Source: Nitrospirota bacterium
GTDB taxonomy: Bacteria > Nitrospirota > Thermodesulfovibrionia > Thermodesulfovibrionales > SM23-35
DNA length: 64,000 nt
NCBI GenBank assembly: GCA_013388435.1
Contig: JACAFE010000018.1
Location: forward strand, 13,390 to 77,389
Direction of reading: 5' to 3'
The translations under genes and the position numbers were made by a program. This document shows positions 818 through 50,093 of the stretch, one piece after another. Every line of letters starts with the position of its first letter. The stretch's first letter is position 1. The notes beneath the pieces were generated by a model, which was not told the origin of the DNA, did not search any database, and saw nothing but the letters and a program-made list of their open reading frames with translations.

Positions 818-884
818 TTTTGCCTCCATTTTTTACTCTTGCAATTATTAATTTGTTATTGTAGCACAGTTATGTCTATAAAAC

Positions 885-913
885 TTGATAAAATTATCAA
901 TGGAATATACACT
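885..913 (+). promoter_or_regulatory. Candidate sigma70 promoter of the alpha-2-macroglobulin gene
   Basis: TTGATA (885-890), 17-nt spacer, TACACT (908-913). It is followed by GGGAGG (932-937) and the ATG codons at 938 and 944. Confidence 0.35.
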
Positions 914-943
914 TTAAATATCTATCATTACGGGAGGATGGTT

Positions 944-8921: not shown

Positions 8922-8960
8922 TAAATAAGACCGAAATAATTTATGAGGAGATTTTGAATT

Positions 8961-10085: not shown

Positions 10086-10103
10086 AAAAATCGGTGAATA
10101 AAT

Positions 10104-13100
10104 ATGTGGCTTGCTGATATATCTATAAAAAGACCTGTTTTCGCAACAATGGTTATTCTCGGATTGGTTATCCTCGGGATAGTCAGTTATCCGAGAATCG
10201 GGGTTGACCTATTTCCAAAAGTTGAATTCCCAATAATAAATATCACAACAACTTTAAAAGGCGCAAATCCCGATATTATGGATATAGATGTTACTGATCA
10301 GATAGAAGGTGCTGTAAATACAATTGAGGGAGTTAAGGGAATTATATCAACAAGCACCGAAGGAGTTTCAGTTGTAACAGTTGAATTTGTTCTGGAGAAA
10401 AATATTGATATCGCTTTACAGGATGTGAGGGAAAAGCTTTCGGTCATCAGAGGAAAACTCCCTAAAGATATTGATGATCCTATCATTGAAAAAGTCGATC
10501 CTGACGCAGCACCTATTATGTGGTTTTCTTTATCAGGACAGAAATCTGTGCGTGAATTATCAACTTATGCGGATGAAGTGTTAAAAGAACAATTTCAAAG
10601 AATCAAAGGTGTTGGCTCTATAAGATTGGGAGGACTCCGCACAAGACAGGTAAGAATATGGCTTGAAAGGGATAGGCTGAATGCTTATGGCATAACCGCT
10701 AATGACGTTATGAATGCCCTTGCAAGAGAGAATATTGAACTTCCAGGCGGCAGAATTGAAACAGAATCAAAAGAATATTTGGTAAAAATCAAAGGAGAAT
10801 TTCCTGATGTTCAGAAGATAAATGATTTGATTATATATTATTCTAATGGTGCTCCTGTTAGATTAAAAGACATAGGCAGAGCCGAAGATTCAATGGAAGA
10901 GATACGTTCGATCGCAAGGTTTAACGGTATTCCTGCTGTAGGTCTCGGCATACAAAAACAATCAGGCACAAATACTGTTGAAACAATTGACAGAATTAAA
11001 AAAGAACTCGTTCATATAAGAAGCATGCTTCCTGCAGGCATGAAACTGGATATTTCTTTTGACCAGTCAGATTTCATAAAAAAGTCAATAAGAGAAGTTC
11101 AATACCATATGATATACGGCGGAATTTTGGCAATATTAATTGTCTTTATTTTCCTGAAAGATCTAAGAACGACTTTAATTAGCGCTCTGGCAATTCCCAC
11201 TTCTGTAATTTCAACATTCACTTTAATGAATGTTTTTGATTTTACTTTTAATAATATGACCATGCTTGCCCTGTCGCTTTCAATAGGAATACTAATTGAT
11301 GACGCTATTATTGTTATAGAAAACATTCACAGACATATTGACAAGGGACTGCCTCCTATGGAAGCAGCATCCGTTGCAACAAAGGAAATAGGACTTGCTG
11401 TTATGGCGACAACCCTTGCGATAGTTGCGATATTTTTACCTGTCGCATTTATGAAAGGACTTGTTGGAAGATTTTTTGTGCAATTTGCGTTAACAGTGGT
11501 ATTCTCGGTAATGGTATCATTATTTGTTTCTTTTACACTTACACCAATGATGGCATCAAGATATTTAAAAAAGATAACAAATCATCATTTATCCGAACAC
11601 AAAAATAAAAATATTTTTAAACGGTTATCTGAAATACTTGAAAATTGGTATAAAAAAATTGAAGAAGCATATAGAAATTTATTGAAAATCGCTTTAAAGC
11701 AAAGAGCAATTGTTATTATTACAGCAATTGCAATTTTTATATTCAGTATTTTTCTTACAGCTTTTATAGGCAAGGAATTTGTACCACCTGAGGATCAATC
11801 AAGATTCCTTATAAGGCTCAAAGCTCCTATTGATTATTCTGTTCATGAAGCGGACAGAATGTTCAAGAAGGCTGAAGATATTGTAATGTCAGAACCTGAA
11901 GTCAGAACTTGTTTTTACGCACTTGGTCTTACCATGGGACAGGTTAACAGAGGCATTATGTTTGTATCTTTAAAACCAAGGCATGAAAGGAAAAGATCGC
12001 AGCAGGATATAATGGCTGATGTCAGAAAAAAGATGATGAATATTGTCGGGCTTGAAGGAACTGCGGAGGACATTTCACTTATTGGAGGAGGGGTCAGAAA
12101 TGTTCCAATACAATATTCTATTCGCGGCAGTGATCTGAAAGCTGTTGAAGCTTACTCAAAACAAATATTCAATGAATTCAGAAAAATTCCTGGTATTGTT
12201 GATGTTGATTCTTCACTCGAAACAGGCAAACCAGAGATAAGGGTTTATATTGATAGAGACAAAGCTGCTGATCTTGGAGTTGATGTTGCATCAGTTGCTG
12301 AGGCTGCAAATTTTCTCATAGGCGGAGAAGTGGATGTATCAAAGTTTAAAGATGAATCTAAAGGACGAAGATATGACATTAGAGCAAGATTAACGCCTGA
12401 TGATAGATATTCATCTTCTGATATAGGAAGGATTTATGTGAGATCAAAAGATGGAAGACCTGTAGAGATTTCAAATATTGTGAGCATAAAAGAGGCTGGA
12501 GGTCCAAGTGTTATTAATAGAGTTGACCGTTTAAGAGCAGTAACTCTGTTTGCAAATCTTGAAAACAAGACATTGGGCGAGGCGAAAGAACAGCTTGATG
12601 CTATAGCTGCAAAGGTATTGCCACCGGGTTATTCTGGAACGTATAAAGGTATGGCTGATGTAATGGGAGAATCTTTTTTCTATTTAATGTTCGCTCTTAT
12701 TCTCGGAGCTGTTCTTGCTTATATGATTCTTGCGGCACAATATGAAAGTTTTATACATCCTGTAACAGTTTTAATATCAATGCCCCTATCTTTTATTGGA
12801 GCATTTGGTGCATTATTTATAACAGGGAAGACCATAAATCTTTTCAGTCTTATTGGATTGATATTACTTATGGGGCTTGTTAAAAAGAATGCTATTTTAC
12901 TTGTTGATTACACAAATACTTTGAGGAAAAGAGGACTCGAAAGGAAAGAAGCTATACTTACCGCAGGTCCAATAAGATTAAGACCGATTTTAATGACTAC
13001 TTTTGCGATTGTATTCGGCATGTTACCAATAGCTCTCGGTATAGGCGAGGGGGCTGAAACAAGAGCACCAATGGCAATATCAACCATTGGTGGATTAATA

Positions 13101-34821: not shown

Positions 34822-36249
34822 CTAAAAACCTTTTAGAGCAGCACGTGCGAATTCTACAAGCATTGTCGGAAAAACACCTATAATTAACACTGCTGCTGTT
34901 GTAACAGCAAGGGCTAATCCATTTGTAAATGATGTTGTCAAAGGTAGTTCAGTTTTTGGATCCCTCATATACATATACATTACAACTCGCAAATAGAAGT
35001 ATGCTGATATAGCGCTGAATATAACAGCTACAATAACAAGCCATGTGTATCCCGCGTTAATTGCAGCCATAAAAACATATAATTTACCAATAAAGCCTGC
35101 TGTTGGCGGAATTCCTGTCAATGAAAACATAAAAATTAACATCAGTGCAGCAGCTAAAGGGTGTGTTTTTGAAAGTCCTTCATAATCACTTAAATCTTCA
35201 CCTTTTATCCCTTCGCTTCTGAGCATAATAATAACTGCAAACGCTCCGATATTCATGAAAGCATAAATAAACAGATAATTCATCATGCTCGATATTCCTT
35301 CAGAATTAGCCGTAATTATACCGAGTAGAGCATATCCTGCATGAGCTATAGAAGAATAGGCAAGCATTCTCTTTATATTTGTCTGGGATAGTGCAACAAT
35401 ATTACCAACCGCCATAGTAAGAATTGATATGGGAATTAAAATAGTTGCCCAGTCTGCTTTTACTGCTGCAAATGCTATCATAAAAACTCTTCCAATAACA
35501 GCAAATCCAGCAGCTTTTGGTCCAACTGACATGAATGCTGTTATTGATGTTGGTGCACCTTCATATACATCGGGTGCCCACATATGAAATGGAGCAGCGG
35601 CAATCTTGAATCCAAAAGCAACAGTAAGCATTCCAATTGCAAGAAGTAAAGATAGGTTTCCGCTCAAACCTCTTTCTGTTATGAATGTTGCTATCAATCT
35701 CAGATCTGTTGTGCCAGTAAGTCCATATACTATAGAGATACCATAAAGCAAAAATCCTGATGAAAAAGCTCCCAGAAGAAAATATTTAAGCGCGGATTCT
35801 GTTGATTTAAGATTATGCCTTATAAACCCAGCTAATACATAAGTGCTTAATGCCATTAATTCAAGACCAAGGTAAAGTGTTATCAGGTCAGAAGCTGAGG
35901 CCATTATCATCATACCTATAGTTGAAAAGAGTATTAAACTATAATATTCGCCATAATTTACTCTTTCTACAGCAATGTATTTAATCGAAATCAATATCGT
36001 TAATATGACATTTATAAAAAATATGATTTTGAAGAATGTGCTATAACCATCAGCTATGTACATACCCCCGAACGTAGAACCTGTTGTTTTCAGAAGGCTT
36101 AGTGATATTATTGCTGTTCCTGCAATGCTAATTACAGCTACAGCTTCTTTCTTTTTTATAAGCAGATCAAGTAAAAGCACAATTAATGCAAATGCAGTCA
36201 TTAGTATTTCAGGCATTACAGGATTGAGATCAGGAAGGGGGAAATTCAT
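34822..36249 (-). CDS. nuoN: NADH-quinone oxidoreductase (complex I-type) subunit N
   Basis: 475 aa antiporter-like subunit. It is the last gene of the nuo cluster, and its start overlaps the nuoM stop (ATGA). Confidence 0.9.
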   Translation of the reverse strand: MNFPLPDLNPVMPEILMTAFALIVLLLDLLIKKKEAVAVISIAGTAIISLSLLKTTGSTFGGMYIADGYSTFFKIIFFINVILTILISIKYIAVERVNYGEYYSLILFSTIGMMIMASASDLITLYLGLELMALSTYVLAGFIRHNLKSTESALKYFLLGAFSSGFLLYGISIVYGLTGTTDLRLIATFITERGLSGNLSLLLAIGMLTVAFGFKIAAAPFHMWAPDVYEGAPTSITAFMSVGPKAAGFAVIGRVFMIAFAAVKADWATILIPISILTMAVGNIVALSQTNIKRMLAYSSIAHAGYALLGIITANSEGISSMMNYLFIYAFMNIGAFAVIIMLRSEGIKGEDLSDYEGLSKTHPLAAALMLIFMFSLTGIPPTAGFIGKLYVFMAAINAGYTWLVIVAVIFSAISAYFYLRVVMYMYMRDPKTELPLTTSFTNGLALAVTTAAVLIIGVFPTMLVEFARAALKGF

Positions 36250-37787
36250 CTGATTACCTCCATAATATTTTTAGCTATCTGTGCTTCCTGTGCCATTCCA
36301 CCACTATTAACTCTTTCTAAAAGATGTTGCACAGAAGTATGCATGAAGCTTAAGAAAGAATTGGGATAAACACCTATCCAGAATACAAGTATGAGCATGG
36401 GTAACAATGCTATAGTCTCTCTTACATTCATATCAACCAATCCGTGAAGCTTTGGATTTACCTCCATAAAAAACACTCTTTGATATAACCAGAGCATATA
36501 GCCAGCACCTATAATTATTCCGGTGCATGCGAGAACTCCAGCCCATTTATTTGCTGCAAATCCACCTAAAAGAATTAAGAATTCACCAATAAAACCATTT
36601 GTTGCAGGAAGTCCAATCGCCGCCAGAGTAAATACCATAAAAAATGATGAATATATTGGCATTTCTGTAGCAAGTCCGCCATAATCAGCTATTCTTCGTG
36701 TATGTGTTCTTTCATAAACAACTCCTACAGACAAAAAGAGTGCACCTGTTACCACACCATGATTAAGCATCTGGAGTATTCCGCCTTCGACTCCCTGTGT
36801 ATTCAGCGCAAAGATACCAAGTGTAACAAATCCCATATGACTTACAGAACTATATGCAATAAGTCTTTTCAGGTCTGTCTGGCCGAGACAGATAATCGCG
36901 CCGTAAATAATAGCTATAACTGATAAAGTCAGCATTACTGGCGTCATCGCTTTTGATGCTTCAGGAAGTAGAGGCAAAGAGAACCTCAGGAAACCGTAAG
37001 CTCCCATTTTAATAAGAACAGCAGCAAGAATAACCGAACCAGCTGTTGGAGCTTCAGTATGCGCATCTGGCAACCAGGTATGTACAGGCCACATCGGTAC
37101 TTTTACAGCAAAAGCTGCAAAAAATGCCCAGAAAAGCCAGATTTGCATTGTATAAGGATAATGCTTGGTCATCATTGTAAGAATATCGAATGTTTTTCCA
37201 GAATATAAATAAAGTACGATTATTCCAACAAGCATCAGAACGCTTCCGACTAATGTATAAAGGAAAAACTTAATTGCGGCATATACGCGATTCGGACCGC
37301 CCCAGACACCAATAATAAGGAACATCGGTATAAGCATCGCTTCCCAGAAAAGATAGAAAAGAAAGAAATCGAGGGCGCAGAAAACACCGATCATAAAAGA
37401 TGTTGTTAATAATATCGCTATATAAAACTCTTTAATTTTGTTTGTAATCGCTGTCCATGAAATAAGCACGCAAAGAATAGCGCACAGCGTTGAAAGCAGT
37501 ATAAACAGAACGCTTATACCATCAACTCCGAGAAAATAGTAAATATTCCAGTTAGGAATCCATGAGAATCTCTCAACAAACTGCATTTTATGGGTGGTCT
37601 TATCAAAATGAGTAAACAAAGGTATTGAAGCCACAAAAGTCAAAATGCTCGTTCCCAATGCAATCCATTTTGTGAGTGTCTCCCATGATCTTTTGTTAAT
37701 TAGAATTAGAAGTGCGCCCAAAACTGGCAGAAATATAACGGTGCTGAGTATAGGGTAATTCAGATTATTCATTATTACCTGTTCCAT
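36246..37787 (-). CDS. nuoM: Complex I-type subunit M
   Basis: 513 aa Mrp-antiporter-like protein with the WLPDAHTEAPTAGSVILA motif. Confidence 0.9.
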   Translation of the reverse strand: MEQVIMNNLNYPILSTVIFLPVLGALLILINKRSWETLTKWIALGTSILTFVASIPLFTHFDKTTHKMQFVERFSWIPNWNIYYFLGVDGISVLFILLSTLCAILCVLISWTAITNKIKEFYIAILLTTSFMIGVFCALDFFLFYLFWEAMLIPMFLIIGVWGGPNRVYAAIKFFLYTLVGSVLMLVGIIVLYLYSGKTFDILTMMTKHYPYTMQIWLFWAFFAAFAVKVPMWPVHTWLPDAHTEAPTAGSVILAAVLIKMGAYGFLRFSLPLLPEASKAMTPVMLTLSVIAIIYGAIICLGQTDLKRLIAYSSVSHMGFVTLGIFALNTQGVEGGILQMLNHGVVTGALFLSVGVVYERTHTRRIADYGGLATEMPIYSSFFMVFTLAAIGLPATNGFIGEFLILLGGFAANKWAGVLACTGIIIGAGYMLWLYQRVFFMEVNPKLHGLVDMNVRETIALLPMLILVFWIGVYPNSFLSFMHTSVQHLLERVNSGGMAQEAQIAKNIMEVIR

Positions 37788-37816
37788 TGTTCTCCTCTAA
37801 GAGTTCTTAATCCTTT

Positions 37817-39877
37817 TTAACTCAATAAAATTATCAGGGCAACTATAAAAACTGCACCTGCTGCCATAAATATTGCATAATGATGCGCTATACCTGTCTG
37901 AAGTCTTCTGAGTTTCTGGCTAAATATTCCTATCAAATTCGGCACACCATTTACTATACCTTCAATTATCTTAGCATCTGTAAATCCTACAAGAATTTTA
38001 TTCGCAAGTTTAAGAGTTGGCTGCACTATTGTAAGATTGTAAAATTCATCTACATAATACTTGTTGTATAAAATTTTATATAAAAGCGAGAACTGTTTTG
38101 AGATTCTCTCCGGCAAATCAGTTTTCCTGAGATACATAAATGCAGAAAGTCCTAATCCAATGAGCGCTATTGTTGTTGATAGTATCATTACACCCCATTC
38201 CTCTGCGTGAGTAGCGTGGAATTCTGGATGACCCACAACAGGCTGAAGGAAATGAGCAAAATGATTTCCACCTCCGAGTAAAGGCGGAATACCAACCCAA
38301 CCGGCAGCTACCGCTCCAATAGCAAGGAACATTAAAGGTACTGTCATAATATAAGGTGATTCATGTGGGCCATGACCACCATGTGAATCATGTCCCGAAC
38401 CATGTGATGATGAACCATGTCCATGTGGATCGTGACCAGAACTGTGAGAGTCATGACTTGAGCTATGTGAACTGCTGTGTGCATGTGTTGCTGCTTCCTC
38501 TGCCGCAAGCCCGCCGCGATATTCTCCAAAGAATGTCCTGAATATTAATCTGAATGTATAAAAAGGTGTAAAGAATGCTCCAGCAAGTGCAAGTATCCAT
38601 ACAAATTTACCCACACTTGAATGAGAGGCATATGCAGACCATATTATTTCATCTTTGCTGAAGAATCCCGAAAGTCCAGGAAATCCTCCTGCGCTTAAAC
38701 CCGCAATAACGAAAACCGCGTATGTAATAGGCATATATTTTTTCAGTCCACCCATAAATTGAATATTGTTTGTGTGAACTGCATGGATTACACTACCTGC
38801 TGCAAGGAATAATAGCGCTTTAAAAAACGCATGGGTATAAAGATGGAATATACCTGCTGCATAGGCGCCAACTCCACAGGCAAGAAACATGTAGCCTAAA
38901 TGGCTGCAAGTAGAGAAGGCTATTATTCTCTTTATATCATTTTGTGTAATAGCAATCGTTGCCGCAAAGAACATTGTCAATGCTCCGATTATTGCCACTG
39001 TATTCATCGCAATTTCGGAAAGATTGAAAATTGGATTGCATCTCGCAACAAGAAATACACCTGCAGTAACCATTGTTGCAGCATGGATTAATGCGCTGAC
39101 AGGAGTGGGTCCTTCCATTGCATCTGGAAGCCAGACATGTAATGGAATCTGCGCTGATTTTCCGACAGCGCCACAGAATAATAAAAGGGCGATAAGAGTT
39201 GGAAGGTCAACATTAAAGCCAAGAAAATCAACTGTTTTACCAGCAATACTATTAACATTTGCAAAAACATCTGCGTAATGTAAAGTGCCGAATGTAAGAA
39301 ATACCATAAATACGCCGATGCCAAACCCGAAGTCACCGAATCTATTGACTATGAATGCTTTCTTTCCAGCATCTGCTGCAGATTTCTTATTGAAATAATA
39401 TCCAATCAAGAAATATGAGCAAAGTCCCACACCTTCCCAGCCAAAATAAAGCTGGAGGAAATTATTTCCCATTACGAGCATTAGCATGCAGAATGTAAAA
39501 AGATTCAGGTAAGCAAAAAATCTATAATAACCTGTGTCGCCATGCATATAACCTATTGCGTAAATATGAATTAATGTAGCACAGGTTGTAACAACAATCA
39601 GCATAACTGCTGTTAAAGGGTCAATTAAGAATCCTACGCCGACTTTAAATGTGCCTGAAATTATCCATGTATAAAGATCAGCATCAATTATCTTTCCTGC
39701 AAGAACATCCTGAAGTGTCGCAAGTGCGCAGAGCCATGAACCAAAAACAGAAGAGACAGCAAACCAGTGCGCTTTATATCTGGTTACTTCCCTGCCAAGA
39801 AGAATGTTAATTATAAATCCAGTAAGCGGAAGAAAAGGTATTAAAACATGATACCATTGTAATTCCATATTTGCCAT
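37817..39877 (-). CDS. nuoL: Complex I-type subunit L (with His/Ser/Gly-rich insertion)
   Basis: 686 aa with the WLPDAMEGPTPVSALIHAATMV motif and a C-terminal extension consistent with a lateral helix. A low-complexity THAHSSSHSSSHDSHSSGHDPHGHGSSSHGSGHDSHGGHGPHE segment lies at 38360-38488. Confidence 0.9.
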   Translation of the reverse strand: MANMELQWYHVLIPFLPLTGFIINILLGREVTRYKAHWFAVSSVFGSWLCALATLQDVLAGKIIDADLYTWIISGTFKVGVGFLIDPLTAVMLIVVTTCATLIHIYAIGYMHGDTGYYRFFAYLNLFTFCMLMLVMGNNFLQLYFGWEGVGLCSYFLIGYYFNKKSAADAGKKAFIVNRFGDFGFGIGVFMVFLTFGTLHYADVFANVNSIAGKTVDFLGFNVDLPTLIALLLFCGAVGKSAQIPLHVWLPDAMEGPTPVSALIHAATMVTAGVFLVARCNPIFNLSEIAMNTVAIIGALTMFFAATIAITQNDIKRIIAFSTCSHLGYMFLACGVGAYAAGIFHLYTHAFFKALLFLAAGSVIHAVHTNNIQFMGGLKKYMPITYAVFVIAGLSAGGFPGLSGFFSKDEIIWSAYASHSSVGKFVWILALAGAFFTPFYTFRLIFRTFFGEYRGGLAAEEAATHAHSSSHSSSHDSHSSGHDPHGHGSSSHGSGHDSHGGHGPHESPYIMTVPLMFLAIGAVAAGWVGIPPLLGGGNHFAHFLQPVVGHPEFHATHAEEWGVMILSTTIALIGLGLSAFMYLRKTDLPERISKQFSLLYKILYNKYYVDEFYNLTIVQPTLKLANKILVGFTDAKIIEGIVNGVPNLIGIFSQKLRRLQTGIAHHYAIFMAAGAVFIVALIILLS

Positions 39878-39906
39878 ATTCTTATTCCTCTATACTCATT
39901 TGTTAA

Positions 39907-40212
39907 TCAGCCCTGCATCTCTTTGATTTCATCAACATGGGCGGTTGCTCTGTTCCTGAACATTGCAATTACAATCGCAAGTCCGATAGCTGCTTCAGCA
40001 GCAGCGACCGCGATCACAAAAAACGCAAGTATCTGCCCCCTTAAATCCTGTATATAATGACTGAGAGCTATTAAATTAATGTTGACTCCGTTTAACATTA
40101 ATTCTATAGACATTAACATAATAATTATGTTTCTTCTTGAAAGAAAACCAAAGACACCGATTGAAAATACAGCAAGACTTAATAACATATACCAGCTTAA
40201 TGGGACAGCCAT
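39907..40212 (-). CDS. nuoK: Complex I-type subunit K
   Basis: 101 aa, 3 TM, with conserved mid-membrane Glu residues (SIELMLNG, AAAEAAIGLA). Confidence 0.9.
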   Translation of the reverse strand: MAVPLSWYMLLSLAVFSIGVFGFLSRRNIIIMLMSIELMLNGVNINLIALSHYIQDLRGQILAFFVIAVAAAEAAIGLAIVIAMFRNRATAHVDEIKEMQG

Positions 40213-40213
40213 T

Positions 40214-40726
40214 TTAACTCTTAAGCCTCCTTTTTGCGAGGACTATTGCTCCAATCATTGCAACAAGAAGAATCAAAGAAGCAACTTCAAAAGGATAAAT
40301 AAATTCTGTATATAATAATTTACCGAGAGCTTTTATGTGTGTCTCCTGCTTGATCAAATCTATTGAATATTTACCCGGAGGCGCAGCAATAAAAGAACTC
40401 AGTGACATTGAAACAGCTACAAAAAGTCCAAGAGCAAAGGTAAAACCTGTTGGGCCGAATGTAGTATATTTACCTATTGATAATTCTTCACGAAGGTTCA
40501 TCAATAGAACAACAAATAGGAATAAAACGAGTATGCCTCCTGCATAGACTATAACCTGTATAGCAGCCATGAATTCAGCATTTAGAAATAAATATAATCC
40601 TGCTATGTGGAAAAACAGGAGAAGCATCCATAAGACACTATGAACAGGATTCTTTCTTGTTACTACAAGCAATGAAAGAACCACAATTGCAAAAGCAAAA
40701 TATATAAAAAAGCCTATGGATACCAT
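40214..40726 (-). CDS. nuoJ: Complex I-type subunit J
   Basis: 170 aa membrane protein in the expected operon position. It has the typical VIVYAGGILVLFLFV segment. Confidence 0.88.
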   Translation of the reverse strand: MVSIGFFIYFAFAIVVLSLLVVTRKNPVHSVLWMLLLFFHIAGLYLFLNAEFMAAIQVIVYAGGILVLFLFVVLLMNLREELSIGKYTTFGPTGFTFALGLFVAVSMSLSSFIAAPPGKYSIDLIKQETHIKALGKLLYTEFIYPFEVASLILLVAMIGAIVLAKRRLKS

Positions 40727-41250
40727 TATCTTTTACCTCCATACATTGCCTGTCCGGGAGGTGTTCCAAAATCCTCTGACATAGGCCTCCAGAATTTCTT
40801 ATAATATTCTTCGCCTTTTGTCCCTGGCATATATTTATCCCAGTTCGATAATAATTTTTCCTTTGTCATCATTAAATCCTGTTTATTGTAAGCTGAATAT
40901 TCATAATTTCCAGTTAAAGATATGGCTCCATAGGGACAGGCTTCAACACAGAATCCACAATATATACATCTCAGAAGTTCTATCTGATATTTTGTAACCT
41001 GGCCTTTTTCTCTGGTTATGCTTATGCATTGTGAAGGACATATTGTTGCGCATAATCCACAACCAACGCACTTGGCTTTTCCCCCGCGTTTTGAAAGAGC
41101 ATGTTGTCCTCTGAAACCCGGGGCAATCTTTCTTCTTTCATCGGGATATTGTATGGTTACAGCTCTGGAAAACATCCTTCTTAATGTTAAAGCCATTCCT
41201 TTTAGTATTTCTATAAAGGTAATTGTCTTAATGAAATGTTTGAATGTCAC
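40726..41250 (-). CDS. nuoI: Complex I-type subunit I (2x[4Fe-4S], TYKY)
   Basis: 174 aa with a GTG start. The two cluster motifs are CVGCGLCATICP and CIYCGFCVEACP. Confidence 0.9.
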   Translation of the reverse strand: MTFKHFIKTITFIEILKGMALTLRRMFSRAVTIQYPDERRKIAPGFRGQHALSKRGGKAKCVGCGLCATICPSQCISITREKGQVTKYQIELLRCIYCGFCVEACPYGAISLTGNYEYSAYNKQDLMMTKEKLLSNWDKYMPGTKGEEYYKKFWRPMSEDFGTPPGQAMYGGKR

Positions 41251-41251
41251 G

Positions 41252-42310
41252 CTACAATACCTCTTTTAAAATTATTTTTACGAGTCCTGTTAAAAGAATA
41301 TTACCAATTGCGACCGGAATCAAAATTTTCCAGCCTATAGCCATAAACTGGTCATATCTGTATCTTGGCACAGTTGCTCTTATCCAGTAATAGAAAAAGA
41401 AAAATGCATAAACTTTTAATACAAACCATACAACTCCTGGCACATAACTAAGGAATGGGAATATTTTTAAAACATACCATGGTAATGTCCATCCCCCTAA
41501 AAAACATATTGTGCATAATGAAGCCATTAAAATCATTGCTATATATTCACCAAGGAAAAAGAGTGCAAATCTGAAACTGCTATATTCTGTAAAATAACCT
41601 GCAACAAGTTCGCTTTCTGCCTCGGGCAGGTCAAAAGGTGTTCGGTTTGTTTCTGCAACTGCTGCAATTACAAATACAATAAATCCGATAAACTGTGGGA
41701 TAGCATACATGCCAAATATTGATTCACCTTGCGCTCTGATTATATCCGAGAGATTCAATGAACCTGCCATCATCATAACACCAACAAGGCTGAGTCCCAT
41801 TGCAATTTCATAGCTTATTACCTGTGCAGATGATCTAAGACCGCCCATGAATGCATATTTTGAGTTTGACGCCCATCCTGATATAAATATTCCGTAAACA
41901 CCGATGCCTGCCATCGCAAAAATAAATAATAGCCCAACATTAATATCGGCTATGACAAAATTTGCATCAAATGGTATAACTGATAAATTGACCATTGCGG
42001 CAGCCATAAAAATTATTGGAGCGATATAAAATACAACTTTGTCAGCCTGTGCAGGTATAATATCTTCTTTAAAGAAAAGTTTTATACCATCTGCAAAAGG
42101 TTGTAATAATCCATGCGGACCCACTCTCATAGGACCAAGTCTGACCTGCATATGACCTATAACCTTACGTTCAAAATAGGTTGCGTATGCCACATGAAGC
42201 AAGCCAATTGCAAGCACAATCACAATTTTTAAAAGTATAATTGCAACATCAATGCCGAATTTAATTAAAGCATCAACTGTTGAAGGACTTATTACATTTG
42301 CCATATTCAT
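41252..42310 (-). CDS. nuoH: Complex I-type subunit H
   Basis: The ORF extends to 42346, but ATG 42310 (MNMANV...) lies 4 nt after the nuoD stop and is the more likely start. The sequence is canonical NuoH (ERKVIGHMQVRLGPMRVGPHGLLQPFADGIKL). Confidence 0.9.
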   Translation of the reverse strand: MNMANVISPSTVDALIKFGIDVAIILLKIVIVLAIGLLHVAYATYFERKVIGHMQVRLGPMRVGPHGLLQPFADGIKLFFKEDIIPAQADKVVFYIAPIIFMAAAMVNLSVIPFDANFVIADINVGLLFIFAMAGIGVYGIFISGWASNSKYAFMGGLRSSAQVISYEIAMGLSLVGVMMMAGSLNLSDIIRAQGESIFGMYAIPQFIGFIVFVIAAVAETNRTPFDLPEAESELVAGYFTEYSSFRFALFFLGEYIAMILMASLCTICFLGGWTLPWYVLKIFPFLSYVPGVVWFVLKVYAFFFFYYWIRATVPRYRYDQFMAIGWKILIPVAIGNILLTGLVKIILKEVL

Positions 42311-42314
42311 AATT

Positions 42315-43793
42315 CTACCTGTCACACTCTCCAAGAACAATATCAATTGTTCCGATATTAGCTATAACATCAGCAACCAAATGCCCTTTGCAGAGTCTTT
42401 CAAGACATCCTGCGTGAATGAAAGACGGAGACCTTACCCTCATTCTGTAGGGCTTATGAGTACCATCGCTTACAAAATAAAATCCAAGCTCTCCTTTTGG
42501 GACCTCTGTTGCCACATAAACTTCGCCTTCAGGAACTTTTGGTCCTTTTTTAATAAAATCAAAATGTGCAACAAGCGCTTCCTGAGCTTTCTTAAATTCA
42601 TCAGCAACAGGCTGGGCTGAAAGTTCAACAAGTTTCTCTTCAGGCTGTCCCTTGCCTCCCGGGATTATTTTCAAAGCTTTGAATTTACATGTTACAAAAC
42701 ATGTTGCGCATTGCAGACATAAAGATTGATCAATCTTATGTGGTTTCTTCTTCTCTCCTGTTATTGCCTTTGCTGGACATGCCCTTAGACACATCCCACA
42801 TCCTTTGCATGCTTTTTCATCAATAAAATATGCGATTTCATTTACTGGATGTGTGATTATCAACATTTTATCTTTTGGAGGAAGTACAAATTTTGGAGCA
42901 TCAGCCATCACAGGTCCGGCAGGAAGTTTTTCAAGACATTGTCTGATTATTTTTACAGACTGCCTCAACTCGAGCATTCTGCAACGGTATCTATCATATG
43001 TATCGCCTGCGGTGCCTATGGGAACTTCGAACTCAACCTGATCATAGGCATCATATGGCATAAATTTTCTTATATCATACGGGATTCCCGAACCTCTTAA
43101 TGTTGGTCCTGTCATTCCCCAGTTAATCGCTTCTTCAGCAGATATAACTCCAATTCCAACAGTTCTCTTGAGCCAGATTCTGTTCTGATCAATTAAAGTT
43201 TCATATTCGAGAATTCTCGAAGGAAATTCTGCAAGGAATTTCACAAGATGATCTATAAATTCCTGAGATATATCATTTCTAACACCACCAACTCTTGGAT
43301 ATGTAACTGTAAGTCTTGCCCCGCATATCATTTCGAATAGTTCAAGTATCCATTCTCTTTCTCTAAAGCAATAAAGGAATACTGTCATTGCGCCAATATC
43401 TAAGGCATGTGTTGCAAGCCACAATAGGTGGTTTGAAATTCTTGATAATTCACCAACAATTGTTCTTATAAATTTTGCACGGGGCGGGGCTTCTATGCCA
43501 TAAAGTTTTTCTACTGCTACGCAATATCCAATGTTATTGGACATTGCTGAAACATAGTCCATTCTGTCTGTTAAAGGCAATGCCTGAAAGTAACTAAGAT
43601 TTTCACCAAGTTTTTCTATTCCGCGATGCAGATAACCAACATATGGAGTAAGTCTGACAATAGTTTCACCATCTAAATCCAGTACCACTCTTAATACTCC
43701 ATGAGTGGCCGGATGCTGAGGCCCCATGTTAACATTCAGTTCTCTTGTTTCAAAGATTTTTTCTGGCTCCTGCATCTTAATCATGCCATTCAA
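42315..43793 (-). CDS. nuoD: Complex I-type subunit D (49-kDa/Nqo4) carrying an inserted 2x[4Fe-4S] ferredoxin-type domain
   Basis: 492 aa, against roughly 400 aa for typical stand-alone NuoD. The N- and C-terminal parts are canonical ([13 protein letters not shown]...; ...[13 protein letters not shown]...RVRSPSFIH...DIVLGECDR). An extra segment at aa ~311-404 (42582-42863) carries [12 protein letters not shown] and [17 protein letters not shown] lies 5 nt upstream of ATG 43793. Confidence 0.9.
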
Positions 43794-44367
43794 ACTCCTT
43801 CAGTTCCTGAGATCTCTTAATAACTTCAATAAATCCAGGCCAGTCTTTATCACCTTCGTATCCTTTTAAAGGATAATCTTTTCTTAATGGGTGACCTTCC
43901 CAGTCCTCGGGTAATAAAATTCTTCTTAAATCGGGATGCCCTACAAATTGAATTCCAAACATATCAAAACATTCTCTTTCATGCCAGTTTGCACCTGCCC
44001 AAATTGGCACGACTGAGGCAATTTTTGCATCATTTTCAGGAACCTGAGCTTTTATTCTTATTATATGACGGTATTTTGTAGATAAAAGATTATAGACAAC
44101 CTCAAATCTAACTTCTTTCTTATTAGACCAGTCAATAGCTGTTAAATCTCTCAAATGATCAAAACTAAGAACTGGTTCATCATGAAGATATTTAAGAATC
44201 GAGAAGCTTTGGTTTTTCTTTATGATAACAGCAACCTGATCCCTGAAATTGGTAACATCAATTACCTGTTCAGGGAATTTTTCTTTTATCATTTCAGCAA
44301 TTTTTTCCTGCTCTATTCCAGCAGGATGTAATCCAGCTACAACTTCGGTTACCGCCATGGACTCCAC
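43777..44367 (-). CDS. nuoC: Complex I-type subunit C (30-kDa)
   Basis: 196 aa with the [24 protein letters not shown] motif. The start is GTG 44367 or ATG 44358, and it overlaps the nuoB 3' end. Confidence 0.9.
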
Positions 44368-44867
44368 CTCGCCTGTTCTTTTCTTATTTTTTCCTGTAGA
44401 AGCATTACACCTTCAAGAAATGTCTCTGGTCTCGGAGGACACCCTGGTATAAAAACATCTACTGGCAGGAAAGTATCGCATCCCTGCACCGTGCTGTAGG
44501 TCTTGAAAATTCCCCCTGTACATGCGCAACTTCCAACAGAGATAACATATCTTGGTTCAGGCATCTGATCATAAACTCTTCTAACAATCGGAGCCATTTT
44601 CTTAGTAACAGTGCCGGCAATTATAATACAGTCTGCCTGCCGGGGTGAAGCTCTGAAAATAACACCGAACCTGTCGAAATCATAATGTGATGCGCCCACG
44701 GCCATCATCTCAATAGCGCATCAAGCAAGTCCGAATGTCATAGGCCATATAGATGAAAGTCTGCCCCAGTTAATAATTTTGTCGAAAGTTGTAATAATAG
44801 CATTCGGAGGCAGTATCTTAACATCCTGCTGCACCTGGATAAGGCCTATACTTGATGTATCCAGCAT
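44349..44867 (-). CDS. nuoB: Complex I-type subunit B (PSST/Nqo6) with in-frame TGA at codon 49 (candidate selenocysteine; alternatively a nonsense lesion)
   Basis: ATG 44867 is preceded by AGGGGG with a 9-nt spacer. The frame reads [48 protein letters not shown]-[TGA 44723-44721][19 protein letters not shown]...GSCACTGG...PGCPPRPE... to the stop at 44349. The track shows only the 119-aa portion after the TGA. Confidence 0.8.
44688..44723 (-). other. Hairpin that includes the nuoB UGA codon (possible recoding element)
   Basis: On the mRNA, UGAUGCGC (44723-44716) pairs perfectly with GCGCAUCA (44695-44688). That is 8 bp, plus a possible U-G extension. The intervening loop is 20 nt. Confidence 0.5.
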
Positions 44868-44892
44868 CTACAATAACCCCCTGTTAAATATT

Positions 44893-45264
44893 TTAATCCC
44901 AGACAAATGCTTCTTTTTTCCAGGCGTAAATGTATCCGATTAAAAGTATCAAAATAAAGATAACCATTTCGATAAATGCAAATATGCCTATCTTATCAAA
45001 TACAATTGCCCATGGATAAATAAAAATTGCTTCAACATCAAAAACCACGAAAAGCATTGCTATTATATAAAAACGGATTGCGAATCTTGTGCGAGGTTCA
45101 CCTTTCGGGTTAATACCAGATTCATAAGGCATTAATTTTTCAGGATAGGGTTTTTTTGGCCTGAATACTACTCCTATTAACAGTGCGCCAAAACCAAACG
45201 CCTCTGCAACGAGTATAAAAATTAAAACCGGTAAATATTCTGTTGGCAAATACGTTCCAGGCAT
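44893..45264 (-). CDS. nuoA: Complex I-type subunit A
   Basis: 123 aa, 3 TM, with the canonical YESGINP and FDVEAIFIYPWA motifs. Confidence 0.9.
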   Translation of the reverse strand: MPGTYLPTEYLPVLIFILVAEAFGFGALLIGVVFRPKKPYPEKLMPYESGINPKGEPRTRFAIRFYIIAMLFVVFDVEAIFIYPWAIVFDKIGIFAFIEMVIFILILLIGYIYAWKKEAFVWD

Positions 45265-45526: not shown

Positions 45527-46357
45527 ATGTTCAAAATCCTTGAAAAACAATTATTATCTGATGCTGTAGTATTATTTGTAATCGATGCAAAAGAAATAGC
45601 TCAAAAAGCAAAAGCAGGAAACTTTTTTGTGCTTCGCATTCATGAAAAAGGAGAAAGGATTCCGCTTACTATTGCTGATTTTGACAGAGAAAAAGGTACG
45701 ATTACCACTGTTTTTCAAAAGATTGGGAAAACAACCAATGAGCTTGCTTTATTAAAAGAAGGTGATTATATTTCAGATGTAATAGGTCCATTGGGTATTC
45801 CTTCACATATTGAAAAATTCGGCAAAGTAATCTGTGTTGGCGGTGGAGTTGGAATAGCACCTATTTATCCTATTGCACGGGCACTAAAAGAAGCGGGCAA
45901 TACTGTAATTTCAGTAATTGGAGCAAGGATGAAAGAGCTTATTTTCTGGGAAGACAAAATGAAAAGCGTATCGGATGAATTAATAGTTGTAACAGATGAT
46001 GGTTCATATGGGAGAAAAGCTGTTGTTACCGTGCCTGTTGATGAAATTCTGCATGAAGATAAGGAAGTAAAACTTGTTTATGCGATAGGGCCTGCTATAA
46101 TGATGAAATTTGTTTGTATAACTACGCAAAAATATAATGTTAAAACTATTGTCAGCCTGAATTCCATAATGGTTGATGCAACAGGCATGTGCGGAGCTTG
46201 CAGGGTTGAGGTTGCGGGAGAAACAAAATTCGCCTGTGTTGATGGCCCTGAATTTGATGGGCATAAAGTAGATTTTAACCTTTTAATGTCAAGACAGAGA
46301 ATGTATATTGACGAAGAAAAAATTGCTATGGAACATTTTAAATCCGGGGTGAAATAA
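45527..46357 (+). CDS. nfnA: NfnA/SudB-type small subunit (PyrK-like FAD + [2Fe-2S] ferredoxin-NADP+ reductase subunit)
   Basis: 276 aa with a PyrK-like flavin/NAD fold (VGGGVGIAP). The C-terminal cluster motif is GMCGACRVEVAGETKFACVDGPEFDG. AAAGGAG precedes the ATG. Confidence 0.75.
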   Translation: MFKILEKQLLSDAVVLFVIDAKEIAQKAKAGNFFVLRIHEKGERIPLTIADFDREKGTITTVFQKIGKTTNELALLKEGDYISDVIGPLGIPSHIEKFGKVICVGGGVGIAPIYPIARALKEAGNTVISVIGARMKELIFWEDKMKSVSDELIVVTDDGSYGRKAVVTVPVDEILHEDKEVKLVYAIGPAIMMKFVCITTQKYNVKTIVSLNSIMVDATGMCGACRVEVAGETKFACVDGPEFDGHKVDFNLLMSRQRMYIDEEKIAMEHFKSGVK

Positions 46358-47787
46358 TGGAAGAGAAAAAACAGAAAAATAGAATTAAAATGAGAGAGCA
46401 GAATCCAATTGAAAGAGCAAAAAATTTTAATGAAGTGCCTTTTGGATATTCTCCTGAAGAGGCAATGGAAGAAGCTTCACGGTGTTTAAATTGCGTAAGA
46501 CCAACCTGCCGGGAAGGATGCCCTGTCTCAATTAATATCCCTGCATTTATTAAGTTAATTAAAGAAGGAAAATTTATAGAAGCAGCATGGAAAATAAAAG
46601 AAGAAAATGCAATGCCAGCTGTATGTGGAAGAGTCTGCCCGCAAGAGATACAATGCGAATCGAGATGCATTCTCGGAAAAAAAGGTGAGCCTGTTGCAAT
46701 TGGTAATCTTGAAAGATTTGTTGCTGATTTCGAACGTGAAAGCGGCGAAATTCAAATACCCGAAAAACCCAAACCCACTGGCAGAAAAGTTGCTGTAATA
46801 GGCTCTGGTCCCGGCGGGCTTTCATGCGCTGCAGATTTAATAAAAGAAGGGCATCAGGTTACATTGTTTGAAGCATTGCACAAACCAGGAGGTGTTCTTA
46901 TATATGGGATACCTGAATTCAGATTGCCAAAGGTTATAGTCGAAAAAGAAGTTGAATATATAAAAAAGCTTGGCGTCGAACTCAGACTTAATTCAGTCAT
47001 AGGAAAACTTTTCACAATAGATGAACTTATGAATGAACAGGGTTATGATGCCTGTTACATTGGAGCAGGCGCTGGTTTGCCTGTTTTTCTCGGAATTCCA
47101 GGTGAAAATCTGAATGGAATTTATTCAGCGAATGAATTTCTTACAAGAGCAAATCTTATGAAAGCATATCTTTTCCCTGAATATGATACCCCTATTAAAA
47201 GAGGGAAAAGTGTTGCAGTATTTGGTGGTGGAAATGTTGCGATGGATGCTGCAAGGGTTGCTTTGCGTCTCGGCTCCGAAAAAGTCTATCTAATTTATAG
47301 ACGCTCTGAAGAAGAAATGCCCGCAAGAAAAGCAGAAATTCATCATGCAAAAGAAGAAGGGATTGAGTTCATGCTTCTTACCGCTCCATTAAAATTCATA
47401 GATGATGGCAAAGGAAATGTTTGCGGTGTTGAATGCATTAAAATGGAACTCGGAGAGCCCGATGCTTCAGGAAGAAGAAAACCTGTACCAATAAAAGGAA
47501 GCGAATTTCAGCTCGAGATAGATGTTGCGATTCCTGCGATTGGGACGCGGTCGAATACATTACTTACCAGCACCATACCTGACCTTGCTTTAAACAGGAA
47601 AAATTACATAATCGCTGATCATGAAACAGGAATGACATCAAAGCCCGGCATATTTGCAGGAGGGGATATTGTCACAGGCGCTGCAACAGTAATTCTTGCT
47701 ATGGGCGCAGGCAGAAAAGCAGCTAAAGGGATTAATGACTATCTCAAGTGGAAATTCTGGGACACGAGAAAATTTATATCAAGTTAA
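46357..47787 (+). CDS. nfnB: NfnB/SudA-type large subunit (GltD-like NADPH-dependent oxidoreductase with 2x[4Fe-4S])
   Basis: 476 aa. The N-terminal Cys clusters are CLNCVRPTCREGCP and CGRVCPQEIQCE. The two dinucleotide folds are VAVIGSGPGGLSCA and VAVFGGGNVAMDAA. Confidence 0.75.
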   Translation: MEEKKQKNRIKMREQNPIERAKNFNEVPFGYSPEEAMEEASRCLNCVRPTCREGCPVSINIPAFIKLIKEGKFIEAAWKIKEENAMPAVCGRVCPQEIQCESRCILGKKGEPVAIGNLERFVADFERESGEIQIPEKPKPTGRKVAVIGSGPGGLSCAADLIKEGHQVTLFEALHKPGGVLIYGIPEFRLPKVIVEKEVEYIKKLGVELRLNSVIGKLFTIDELMNEQGYDACYIGAGAGLPVFLGIPGENLNGIYSANEFLTRANLMKAYLFPEYDTPIKRGKSVAVFGGGNVAMDAARVALRLGSEKVYLIYRRSEEEMPARKAEIHHAKEEGIEFMLLTAPLKFIDDGKGNVCGVECIKMELGEPDASGRRKPVPIKGSEFQLEIDVAIPAIGTRSNTLLTSTIPDLALNRKNYIIADHETGMTSKPGIFAGGDIVTGAATVILAMGAGRKAAKGINDYLKWKFWDTRKFISS

Positions 47788-47912: not shown

Positions 47913-50093
47913 ATGAAAAAGACATTTTTCATTATAAACAAATTCCTCGTCCTGTTCATTCTTTTAATGGTTTGTGATGTTTTTGCCACGCCTTCTTTTC
48001 AGGAGGTGAAAGATTCTTATTTTGCATCTGATGCATTTTTATTAGATAGAAACGGAAAGATTGTTCATGAATTGCGTGTTAACCCCGATATAAGAAGATT
48101 TGAATGGATTTCATTAAAAGACATTTCTCCAGCTTTAATAAAAGCTGTTATTCAATCAGAGGATAAAAGGTTTTACAGCCACTATGGCGTTGACTGGGTT
48201 TCTGTTATTTCCACGCTGATTAAAAATTTTACAGGTAAAAACAGAAGAGGAGCAAGCACTATTACAATGCAGGTGGCAGCTCTTATTAATGAAGAATTAA
48301 AACCAGGAATAAATGGCAGATCAGTTTCACAAAAATGGAGACAGGTTAAGGAAGCTCTTGAAATCGAGAAAATCTGGTCTAAAGATGAAATACTCGAAGC
48401 CTATCTTAATCTTGTTTCATACAGAGGAGAGTTGCAGGGAATTGCAGCTGCTTCAAGATGTCTTTTCAATAAAGAACCTTCAGGTCTGAATAGTGCAGAA
48501 TCAATCATTCTTGCTGCGCTTATACGTTCACCAAATGCAGAAATTGATAAAATCATCAAAAGAGCAAACCTGCTAAACAAGACCTTCAACTTTGTTGTTA
48601 AGCCAGAAGAAATTGAAGATACAATCAAAAAAACATTTAACAGAAAATATTACGTCAGACAAAAAGAAAATCTTGCCCCGCATGTAGCACACTTGCTTTT
48701 AAATAGGACAGGCAATAACATTAATCCCGTCTATTACGGAGCAAAGTCAATTTTTACCACACTTGATTATGATATTCAGCGTTTTGTTTCAGAAACTCTG
48801 AAAGAACACATTTCTTCCCTTAAATCAAGGAATGTAAATGATGGAGCAGCTATTGTTGTTGAAAATAAATCCGGCGATATACTGGCTTATACCGGGAGTA
48901 TAGGAGATGGTTCGGATGCGCCATATGTTGATGGTGTTAGAGCAAAAAGACAGGCAGGCTCAACTCTCAAACCGTTTCTATACGCATTAGCTATAGATAA
49001 ACATTTGCTCACTGCTGCATCTGTTATCACTGACAGCCCTTTTGATATTTCAACAGAATACGGAATATATAAACCTCAAAATTATGAAAATGATTTTAAA
49101 GGTTTAGTTACTTTGAGAACAGCTCTTGCCTCATCTTTAAACGTTCCTGCTGTAAGAACTTTATCACTGATTGGAGTGGATAATTTTGTACGGAAACTCA
49201 AGGAATCGGGTTTTGATAATATAAGAAACGCAGATTATTATGGTCATTCTCTGGCTCTCGGCTCAGCAGATGTTACTTTATATGAACTTGTAAATGCTTA
49301 TCGCATGCTCGCCAATGGAGGCATATACACTAATTTGAAACTGAAAAAGGAAAATTCTTTATATCAACAAACAAAAGTTTTCTCACCTGAGGCTGCTTTT
49401 ATAATATCTGATATACTCTCTGACAGGGAAGCAAGAGGTTATACATTTAGTTTAGAAAACCCTCTGAACACAAAATTCCGAAGTTCTGTAAAAACAGGCA
49501 CAAGTAAAGATATGAGAGACAATTGGTGTATAGGCTATACAGATAAATATACTGTAGGTGTATGGGTTGGTAACTTCTCGGGTGAGGCGATGTGGAATGT
49601 GACAGGAATAACAGGAGCTGCGCCTGTATGGCTTTCCATAATGAATTATCTACACAGGGATAATATTGATACGGGAATCGAACATCCTGACGGTATAGTA
49701 AAAAAGCCTGTATTTATCAATTCAACAAATCCTACAGAGAGAGATGAATGGTTTATTAAGGGCACAGAACCATCAACTACAAGAAATTCAAGATATATTA
49801 TTTCCCTGAATGAAGAACACTTTATTCCGCATATTGTTTATCCTCCTGATGGCACAATAATAACACTTGACCCTGACATACCAGATGAAATACAAAAAAT
49901 CATTATTGAAACAAATCCACCGAGCGATGAAATATTCTGGATATTTGATGGAAAGAATACAGGCAGAACCACAAAAACACCACTAATAATAAAACCTGTT
50001 GCAGGGAAACACACAATTCAATTAATTGATAAACAAAACAGTAAACTCGACTCTATTGAATTTGAGATTAAAGGAAATTCTAAAATAAACTAA
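47913..50093 (+). CDS. pbpC: Penicillin-binding protein 1C-type bifunctional transglycosylase/transpeptidase
   Basis: 726 aa. The GT51 motifs are EDKRFYSHYGVDW and RGASTITMQ. The transpeptidase motifs are STLKP (SxxK), SLN and KTGTS. It has a C-terminal extra domain like PBP1C. Confidence 0.85.
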   Translation: MKKTFFIINKFLVLFILLMVCDVFATPSFQEVKDSYFASDAFLLDRNGKIVHELRVNPDIRRFEWISLKDISPALIKAVIQSEDKRFYSHYGVDWVSVISTLIKNFTGKNRRGASTITMQVAALINEELKPGINGRSVSQKWRQVKEALEIEKIWSKDEILEAYLNLVSYRGELQGIAAASRCLFNKEPSGLNSAESIILAALIRSPNAEIDKIIKRANLLNKTFNFVVKPEEIEDTIKKTFNRKYYVRQKENLAPHVAHLLLNRTGNNINPVYYGAKSIFTTLDYDIQRFVSETLKEHISSLKSRNVNDGAAIVVENKSGDILAYTGSIGDGSDAPYVDGVRAKRQAGSTLKPFLYALAIDKHLLTAASVITDSPFDISTEYGIYKPQNYENDFKGLVTLRTALASSLNVPAVRTLSLIGVDNFVRKLKESGFDNIRNADYYGHSLALGSADVTLYELVNAYRMLANGGIYTNLKLKKENSLYQQTKVFSPEAAFIISDILSDREARGYTFSLENPLNTKFRSSVKTGTSKDMRDNWCIGYTDKYTVGVWVGNFSGEAMWNVTGITGAAPVWLSIMNYLHRDNIDTGIEHPDGIVKKPVFINSTNPTERDEWFIKGTEPSTTRNSRYIISLNEEHFIPHIVYPPDGTIITLDPDIPDEIQKIIIETNPPSDEIFWIFDGKNTGRTTKTPLIIKPVAGKHTIQLIDKQNSKLDSIEFEIKGNSKIN

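Follow-up and report, generated by a model that had tools for sequence, protein, structure and literature searches.

A dicluster ferredoxin-type domain nested within NuoD of an 11-subunit complex I from Thermodesulfovibrionales

The complex I (nuo) operon present in a 64,000-nucleotide stretch of a Nitrospirota genome (GenBank assembly GCA_013388435.1; contig JACAFE010000018.1, positions 13390 to 77389; hereafter the window) was found to encode a NuoD subunit that carries a ferredoxin-type domain with the ligand motifs for two [4Fe-4S] clusters. The domain is nested inside an otherwise canonical NuoD sequence, in an operon without nuoEFG genes, and its position maps to the NuoD segment that borders the ferredoxin site in NDH-1 from cyanobacteria. 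On balance it is probable that the domain provides a built-in route by which electrons enter the complex.

Identification of a ferredoxin-type domain within NuoD

The nuoD gene lies between nuoC and nuoH, in the window as in related loci, which is the position expected for this family. The open reading frame (ORF) of 492 codons reported in a first-pass annotation of the window was confirmed from a TTG codon; the true start is probably the ATG at Met4, giving a protein of 489 amino acids (aa), as close homologues found in a full-length protein search are 486–489 aa long. The predicted product matched the NCBIfam models TIGR01962 (557 bits, cut-off 459) and NF004739 (542 bits, cut-off 360). His31, Tyr80 and Asp132 of the window NuoD correspond to His38, Tyr87 and Asp139 of the quinone site in Thermus, the offset of 7 being taken from the mapping to 2fug_4, and all three are invariant in 79 sequences. 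The Cys pairs that ligate [NiFe] centres were not found in NuoD, as there is no N-terminal RxCxxC and only a single Cys in the C-terminal GECDR, and matches in the PDB to MbhL and HycE were far weaker than those to NuoD of complex I. As the quinone-site residues are present, the protein was taken to be a quinone reductase rather than a hydrogenase. It departs from the family norm in its nested dicluster motif, whereas canonical NuoD carries no Fe-S cluster.

The Pfam model Complex1_49kDa matched NuoD with 384 bits, but the match was broken into two stretches, the better of which covers aa 132–311, and ferredoxin-type models scored above their cut-offs. These matches fell in aa 322–378 and were to Fer4 (39.5 bits, cut-off 21.1; E-value ~4e-10), Fer4_6 (39.9 bits, cut-off 25) and Fer4_7 (29.4 bits, cut-off 27). 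The insert is preceded by PPKDKML and followed by a helix, and at the same place insert-less relatives read PPKDYIL-KDMEHLIHQF, with zero extra residues. The solved NuoD, 49-kDa and Nqo4 chains align to aa 16–310 and 401–492 of the window protein through residues that are adjacent in their own sequences, examples being 7zm7_C (113–406 and 408–499) and Thermus 2fug_4 (17–315 and 319–409). As these chains are contiguous across the site, the additional segment is a clean insertion and not a fusion. It consists, in order, of an N-terminal linker with a conserved ITHP, the dicluster core, the motif PGGKG and a helical C-terminal linker. From the motifs and profile matches the core is predicted to be a 2x[4Fe-4S] ferredoxin domain of the clostridial type, which would bind two clusters.

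The first-pass annotation had placed a 2x[4Fe-4S] ferredoxin-type segment at positions 42582–42863 (aa 311–404), and the limits measured here (Table 1) agree with it to within three codons. Both of the CxxCxxCxxxC motif strings that it quoted are present in the translation, its figure of about eight residues between PPK and the following helix in ordinary NuoD agrees with the junction in the relatives, and its view of an insertion into a canonical subunit, not a terminal fusion, was borne out by the gapless PDB chains and by the profile search for a nested architecture.

Conservation, distribution and authenticity of the insert

A full-length protein search recovered ~70 protein clusters at 90% identity, with lengths of 469–505 aa, that join Complex1_49kDa to Fer4 and derive from NCBI, JGI, ENA and Logan assemblies. 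When one genome per GTDB species was scanned, the full insert was present in 25 species. All 25 are represented by metagenome-assembled genomes, which are labelled Thermodesulfovibrionales, Thermodesulfovibrionia, Nitrospirota or Nitrospiraceae, with one exception that is labelled Nitrospinota. Among 24 full-length sequences from independent genomes the eight Cys residues of the insert are invariant, and the sequences match that of the window with a mean identity of 0.83 for the ferredoxin core, 0.81–0.88 for the NuoD core and ~0.5 for both linkers. The insert is thus under purifying selection and is conserved like the NuoD core.

An initial search with the insert plus flanks had returned only a dozen fragmentary proteins containing all or part of the insert, because nuoC and nuoD are broken into short gene calls in two ENA metagenome contigs (L001, coordinates 9364–10846; L002, coordinates 8549–10594), presumably through frameshift errors. 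When the insert plus flanks was used in a filter-free HMMER search of 1.84 billion representatives at 50% identity, a single representative (P0091) covered both flanks, indicating that the architecture is confined to one family. The other matches listed were partial, and ten that were checked are polyferredoxins or RnfB-like proteins.

The frameshifts that split nuoD in some related long-read contigs give a little room to the view that the architecture is an artefact, namely a chimeric assembly, a nuoD that carries a frameshift or has become a pseudogene, or the functionless insertion of a mobile element. However, identical in-frame junctions recur in the 25 species-level genomes and ~70 clusters, across JGI, ENA, NCBI and Logan assemblies from independent projects and from short-read and long-read platforms, which excludes an assembly chimera. 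The frame is intact, the Cys residues are invariant and no anomaly in base composition was seen at the insert. A pseudogene is likewise ruled out, and an artefact of any of these kinds is so improbable that it carries practically no weight. Among the checks that had been proposed for this architecture, conservation of the eight Cys and the existence of homologues with the same insertion (including 27 related loci with no nuoEFG in the operon) came out in its favour, and the junctions are supported by their recurrence.

The insert-bearing proteins are annotated simply as NuoD in the source databases. A search of the literature found no account of the architecture, closed-access papers not being covered.

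Origin of the inserted domain

Outside NuoD, the best matches to the insert in the genome scan were to the C-terminus of NuoF-like proteins of ~590–650 aa, mostly from Nitrospirota. Some of these have an N-terminal NuoE-like domain, and in the examples inspected the NuoF-like gene is followed by a reading frame resembling NuoG or FdhA. In BLASTP comparisons the insert shares 55–70% identity over 55–76 residues with these NuoF/HydB-like C-terminal domains (E-values 1e-23 to 1e-30), and the likeness extends beyond the last Cys (CKFK..I.P.G), where CKFKSIRILPAG aligns with a 12-residue counterpart. The best PDB matches were mostly to C-terminal domains of the HydB/HoxF/NfnB type, plus RnfB. A duplication of the NuoI encoded by the same operon was considered as a source and rejected, as NuoI shares only 33% identity (E-value 1e-5) with the insert.

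The insert therefore appears to have been taken over from the dicluster domain at the C-terminus of a NuoF/HydB(BfuB)-like subunit, or to have a recent ancestor in common with it. Being nested in NuoD, and not forming the end of a NuoF-like protein, it is a homologue of that domain and not a HydB or BfuB protein. Ferredoxin has been suggested to bind bifurcating hydrogenases at the C-terminal domain of HydB, which holds clusters B3 and B4 and superposes on NdhI (PMC8880783), and ‘Nuo-Bfu’ complexes using such modules have been predicted, with Nitrospirae included (PMC9304861).

Predicted location of the insert at the ferredoxin pocket

The insertion site was mapped by sequence onto published NDH-1 structures. 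In cyanobacterial NDH-1, ferredoxin is contacted by Lys86, Lys89 and Lys91 in a hairpin of NdhI and by Lys315 and Lys321 of NdhH, and its cluster is 9.6 Å from N6a (PMC7021789, PMC6992706). An ungapped match of residues 321–394 in NdhH (6hum_H) to residues 419–492 of NuoD equates K419 with NdhH Lys321, and K419 is 18 residues past the end of the insert. The hairpin that separates the two cluster motifs contains NdhI residues 86–91, and its NuoI equivalent is given in Table 1. This hairpin is 22 aa long in all 31 insert-bearing operons but 27–28 aa in all 20 insert-less relatives with 11 or 14 subunits, and it also differs in sequence in every insert-bearing operon. As both the NuoD side and the NuoI side are altered, the two walls of the ferredoxin pocket have changed together.

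Across all 51 sequences the net charge of the insert core lies between +7 and +9, and the net charge over aa 401–421 is ~+3 in proteins with the insert versus ~0 in insert-less relatives. With both the insert and the following helix basic, the electrostatics are those expected for the binding of acidic ferredoxins. The ligand motifs for N6a and N6b in NuoI are intact. In NuoB, three of the four N2 ligand positions are Cys, and the first position of the tandem pair is a TGA codon, so that the N2 site is intact only if this codon specifies selenocysteine (see below).

Relatives that lack the insert

The nearest operons without the insert (L083 and L085) encode NuoD proteins that are 81–88% identical. 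In L083 (coordinates 1–6052) the insert-less 11-subunit nuo operon adjoins rnfCDGEAB, while in L085 (coordinates 1–5749) the genes upstream of nuo comprise an nfnAB-like pair, two NuoE-like genes and a NuoF-like gene of 622 aa with a C-terminal Fer4 domain. These neighbouring genes may be trans partners of the insert or may stand in for it functionally. In the 14-subunit relative L087, a gene for a protein with a cyclic-nucleotide-monophosphate (cNMP)-binding domain is located between nuoD and nuoE (coordinates 11197–11661).

A neighbour-joining tree built from the NuoD core placed some of the sequences without the insert within the insert-bearing ones. Recombination or an error in the tree is equally likely as repeated loss of the insert to account for this nesting, and repeated loss was not concluded, because the insert-less proteins all keep the ancestral junction and helix.

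Proposed role of the inserted domain

The reading favoured here, with moderate confidence, is that the insert acts as a built-in electron-entry relay, or basic dock, that feeds N6a; the occupancy of the clusters, their geometry, the donor and the direction of electron flow are all inferred. The domain is fixed inside NuoD of an 11-subunit complex I that lacks the NADH module, in a clade of Thermodesulfovibrionales, and in this mechanism would occupy or cap the ferredoxin pocket at the NuoD–NuoI apex. The clusters of the insert would be reduced by a donor of low potential, the likeliest being an acidic soluble ferredoxin, and would pass electrons to N6a, N6b, N2 and finally menaquinone, driving proton pumping. 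The insert would thereby replace the N-module and lengthen the wire by two centres, and the same wire could run in reverse. Ferredoxin was proposed earlier as the donor for the 11-subunit Nuo of Thermodesulfovibrio, from its linkage to pyruvate:ferredoxin oxidoreductase (PMC5165239). The first-pass annotation had likewise suggested an extension of the cluster chain through N6a/N6b to N2, or a docking or entry point for a low-potential donor. This idea gains indirect support from the mapping of the insertion beside the NdhH residues that contact ferredoxin, from the co-varying NuoI hairpin, from the basic charge of the domain and from its kinship with HydB/NuoF C-terminal domains, at which ferredoxin is proposed to bind.

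Several observations weigh against an electron-entry relay at this site. As close relatives lack the insert, it is an add-on and would not be required for an 11-subunit complex to work. The co-variation of NuoI was seen in sequences that are related to one another and could stem from a single event, or a few, in their evolution. The domain is tethered by linkers of ~10 and ~20 residues, with which it could be mobile or lie in another place. An AlphaFold2 model of full-length NuoD from a 79-sequence alignment had a mean predicted local distance difference test (pLDDT) score of 62.8, with the insert at ~80 and the NuoD core poor because the alignment is shallow, and a model of the insert plus flanks had a mean pLDDT of 58.2.

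An alternative is a structural, assembly or regulatory domain that lies off the electron path, with electrons entering N6a directly; such a domain might be a cap that stabilises the surface exposed where NuoG is missing, or might gate activity as a sensor of redox state or oxygen. Close relatives function without the insert and the linkers are poorly conserved, as would be expected for a domain of this kind, but eight invariant ligands and a conservation like that of the core argue for bound clusters and a constrained position. The trimming of the NuoI hairpin further suggests that the insert fills the entry pocket, where it would block access to N6a unless it conducts electrons itself. A location off the electron path was consequently judged to be quite unlikely.

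The nuo operon and its neighbours

The operon in the window comprises 11 genes (Table 1). The nuoEFG genes were not found between nuoD and nuoH, and no Complex1_51K domain was present in the operon. The same 11-gene order without nuoEFG is common to 27 of 27 related loci, absence being scored within the 64-kb window and ±10 kb around the related loci, and the earlier description of an operon without the NuoEFG input module thus holds here and in the relatives.

Table 1. Coordinates of the nuo operon and of features associated with the NuoD insert in the window
Feature	Position	Strand	Basis or remark
nuoD	42315..43793	-	492-aa ORF from TTG; canonical NuoD core with nested ferredoxin domain
Insertion relative to insert-less NuoD, 90 aa (aa 312–401)	42591..42860	-	Alignment with insert-less relatives and PDB homologues
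Predicted 2x[4Fe-4S] ferredoxin core (aa 322–382)	42648..42830	-	Pfam Fer4, Fer4_6, Fer4_7
Cluster motif 1, C329-x2-C332-x2-C335-x3-C339-P340	42774..42809	-	Sequence; four Cys invariant
Cluster motif 2, C359-x2-C362-x2-C365-x3-C369	42687..42719	-	Sequence; four Cys invariant
Helix and loop after insert, with K419 (aa 402–421)	42531..42590	-	6hum_H mapping
NuoI inter-cluster hairpin (aa 73–94)	40969..41034	-	Equivalent to the NdhI Lys86/89/91 hairpin
11-gene operon nuoA-B-C-D-H-I-J-K-L-M-N, no nuoEFG	34822..45264	-	ORFs and Pfam
nuoA	44893-45264	-	
nuoB, N2 subunit, 172 codons, TGA at codon 49	44349..44867 (TGA 44721-44723)	-	FGLA-TGA-C-AIEMM
nuoC	43777-44367	-	
nuoH	41252-42346	-	
nuoI, N6a/N6b subunit	40726..41250	-	
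nuoJ	40214-40726	-	
nuoK	39907-40212	-	
nuoL	37817-39877	-	
nuoM	36246-37787	-	
nuoN	34822-36249	-	
nfnAB/sudAB-like pair, divergent from nuoA	45527..47787	+	Neighbour, not a proven part

The pair of genes beside nuoA encodes a sulfide/dihydroorotate-dehydrogenase-like FAD/NAD-binding protein and a GltD-like protein with a Fer4_20 domain. An nfnAB-like pair adjoins nuoA in ~17 of the 27 related loci. In at least four other loci, which belong to another subclade (L013, L014, L016 and L027), the neighbouring ORFs resemble PntA and PntB (NAD(P) transhydrogenase), by sequence reading only, and some loci have unrelated genes beside nuoA. If the PntA/PntB reading holds, the two kinds of neighbour would both be systems that balance pyridine nucleotides.

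These neighbours bear on a second explanation of the insert, in which it would be a docking plug for a dedicated partner enzyme module that takes the place of NuoEFG, and not a site for soluble ferredoxin. Candidate partners are the NfnAB-like pair, a NuoE/NuoF-like flavoprotein, pyruvate:ferredoxin oxidoreductase or a hydrogenase. The domain is normally part of NuoF/HydB-like subunits of multi-subunit enzymes, the divergent nfnAB-like genes are frequent next to nuoA, the set of genes upstream of nuo in the insert-less L085 includes several of the candidates, and 11-subunit complexes have been proposed as docking platforms for various donors (PMC11238625). However, the nfnAB-like pair was rejected as a conserved partner since its adjacency is not universal, the operon holds no conserved partner gene, and a small, strongly basic domain is what would be expected for the binding of an acidic ferredoxin. 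A dedicated partner is thus a credible but less likely explanation than a relay for soluble ferredoxin.

Three further features of the window were recorded. In NuoL, aa 460–511 (positions 38345–38500, minus strand) form a low-complexity loop rich in His, Ser and Gly (EEAATHAHSSSHSSSHDSHSSGHDPHGHGSSSHGSGHDSHGGHGPHE). The corresponding loop in relatives consists of variable-length expansions of a basal HHEEHHLHESP, with 6–14 His per 45 residues, and metal binding by this loop is a possibility. A bacterial alpha-2-macroglobulin of 1960 aa is encoded at positions 839–6721 (plus strand) and a penicillin-binding protein of the PBP1C type at positions 47913–50093 (plus strand), ~41 kb apart; genes for these two proteins are usually adjacent. 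Rfam and tRNA scans of the window gave no matches.

An in-frame TGA codon in nuoB

The TGA codon within nuoB (Table 1) falls at the first of the two adjacent Cys positions that ligate cluster N2, and the reading frame is conserved to either side of it. TGA was also found at this position in eight of the loci that were fetched, seven of them from genomes of other insert-bearing species and the eighth being the 14-subunit operon in L087, whereas the codon is TGC or TGT in 23 related loci. TGA occurs in both 11- and 14-subunit operons, and the other relatives have Cys. The codon is regarded as a strong candidate for encoding a selenocysteine that ligates N2.

A pattern scan identified the TGA-containing nuoB in 115 metagenome contigs, which, together with the other TGA-type loci, fall into 27 classes of downstream sequence. 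A complete NuoD was available for 59 metagenome contigs, of which 13 have the insert, 21 carry nuoF and 11 belong to insert-less 11-subunit operons. Of the other 14, 12 are contigs that lack the insert, with the operon type unscored, and two gave apparent insert matches that probably come from C-terminal domains of NuoF-like proteins encoded at a distance of several kb. The nuoB TGA is independent of the NuoD insert.

A hairpin was seen by eye at ~+16 to +40 after the TGA in 25 of the 27 classes, with differing stem sequences and no covariation test, and folding energies of the Cys-type and selenocysteine-type sequences did not separate (means of -7.9 against -8.3 kcal/mol). Of the selenocysteine machinery, the window yielded neither a tRNA gene nor, among the ORFs scanned with Pfam, a sel-type domain. 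No paper describing a selenocysteine-containing NuoB was found, closed-access literature not being covered.

The NuoD insert and the nuoB codon can be brought together in a tentative, rather unlikely, scheme in which a HydB/BfuB-type dicluster domain at the NuoD–NuoI apex feeds 11-subunit pumps, in trans (through NuoF/Bfu-like proteins or polyferredoxins) in ordinary 11-subunit complexes and in cis here. On this scheme the lineage would have condensed the N-module into a ferredoxin:complex I adaptor of 90 residues. A selenocysteine-ligated N2 may, in many of these organisms, be combined with this arrangement, retuning the chain for low-potential menaquinone.

Implications

The electron donor and docking mode of 11-subunit complex I without an NADH module are an open question in many anaerobes (PMC11238625, PMC3144371), and a dicluster domain hard-wired into NuoD would be a concrete and testable answer for at least one clade. 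The relatives with and without the insert, at 81–88% identity, form natural pairs for experimental comparison. The architecture also shows that a loop in a core subunit shared by bacteria and mitochondria can accommodate an entire redox domain, which is relevant to the engineering of alternative complex I inputs, and the transfer of the domain would connect the evolution of complex I with the bifurcating HydB/Bfu family.

Comparison with known systems

A close parallel for the proposed entry site is the NDH-1 complex of cyanobacteria and chloroplasts, which has 11 core subunits homologous to NuoA–D and NuoH–N, and no NuoEFG. Electrons enter NDH-1 beside N6a, where NdhH (NuoD) and the hairpin of NdhI (NuoI) make up the apex (PMC7021789, PMC6992706); the insertion described here maps to the same segment of NuoD, and the NuoI hairpin co-varies with it. 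However, NDH-1 binds a free [2Fe-2S] ferredoxin with the help of NdhS, NdhV and NdhO, whereas in the window the 2x[4Fe-4S] domain is covalently part of NuoD, and no NdhS-, NdhV- or NdhO-like genes were seen in the nuo operon.

The subunits of the HydB, BfuB and NuoF-like type share the domain itself, at the level of identity given above for their C-terminal dicluster domain, which has been put forward as the ferredoxin site; Nuo-Bfu, a predicted complex I of Nitrospirae among others, would use ferredoxin through such a module (PMC8880783, PMC9304861). In the window, in contrast, the dicluster domain stands alone, nested in NuoD, with no flavin, NADH site or NuoE/NuoG-like parts.

In gene set, gene order and the question of the donor, the operon resembles those for the 11-subunit complexes of Thermodesulfovibrio, Desulfitobacterium and Dehalococcoidia (PMC5165239, PMC11238625, PMC3144371). 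It differs from generic 11-subunit complexes in that their NuoD is ~396–398 aa long with the uninterrupted PPKDYIL-KDMEHLIHQF junction, and their NuoI hairpin is longer by 5–6 residues. The group 4 [NiFe] hydrogenases (Ech, Mbh and FHL) are comparable in their homologous large subunit and modular build, and Ech and Mbh also have ferredoxin as partner, but the NuoD of the window lacks the Ni-Fe ligand Cys pairs and retains the residues of the quinone site.

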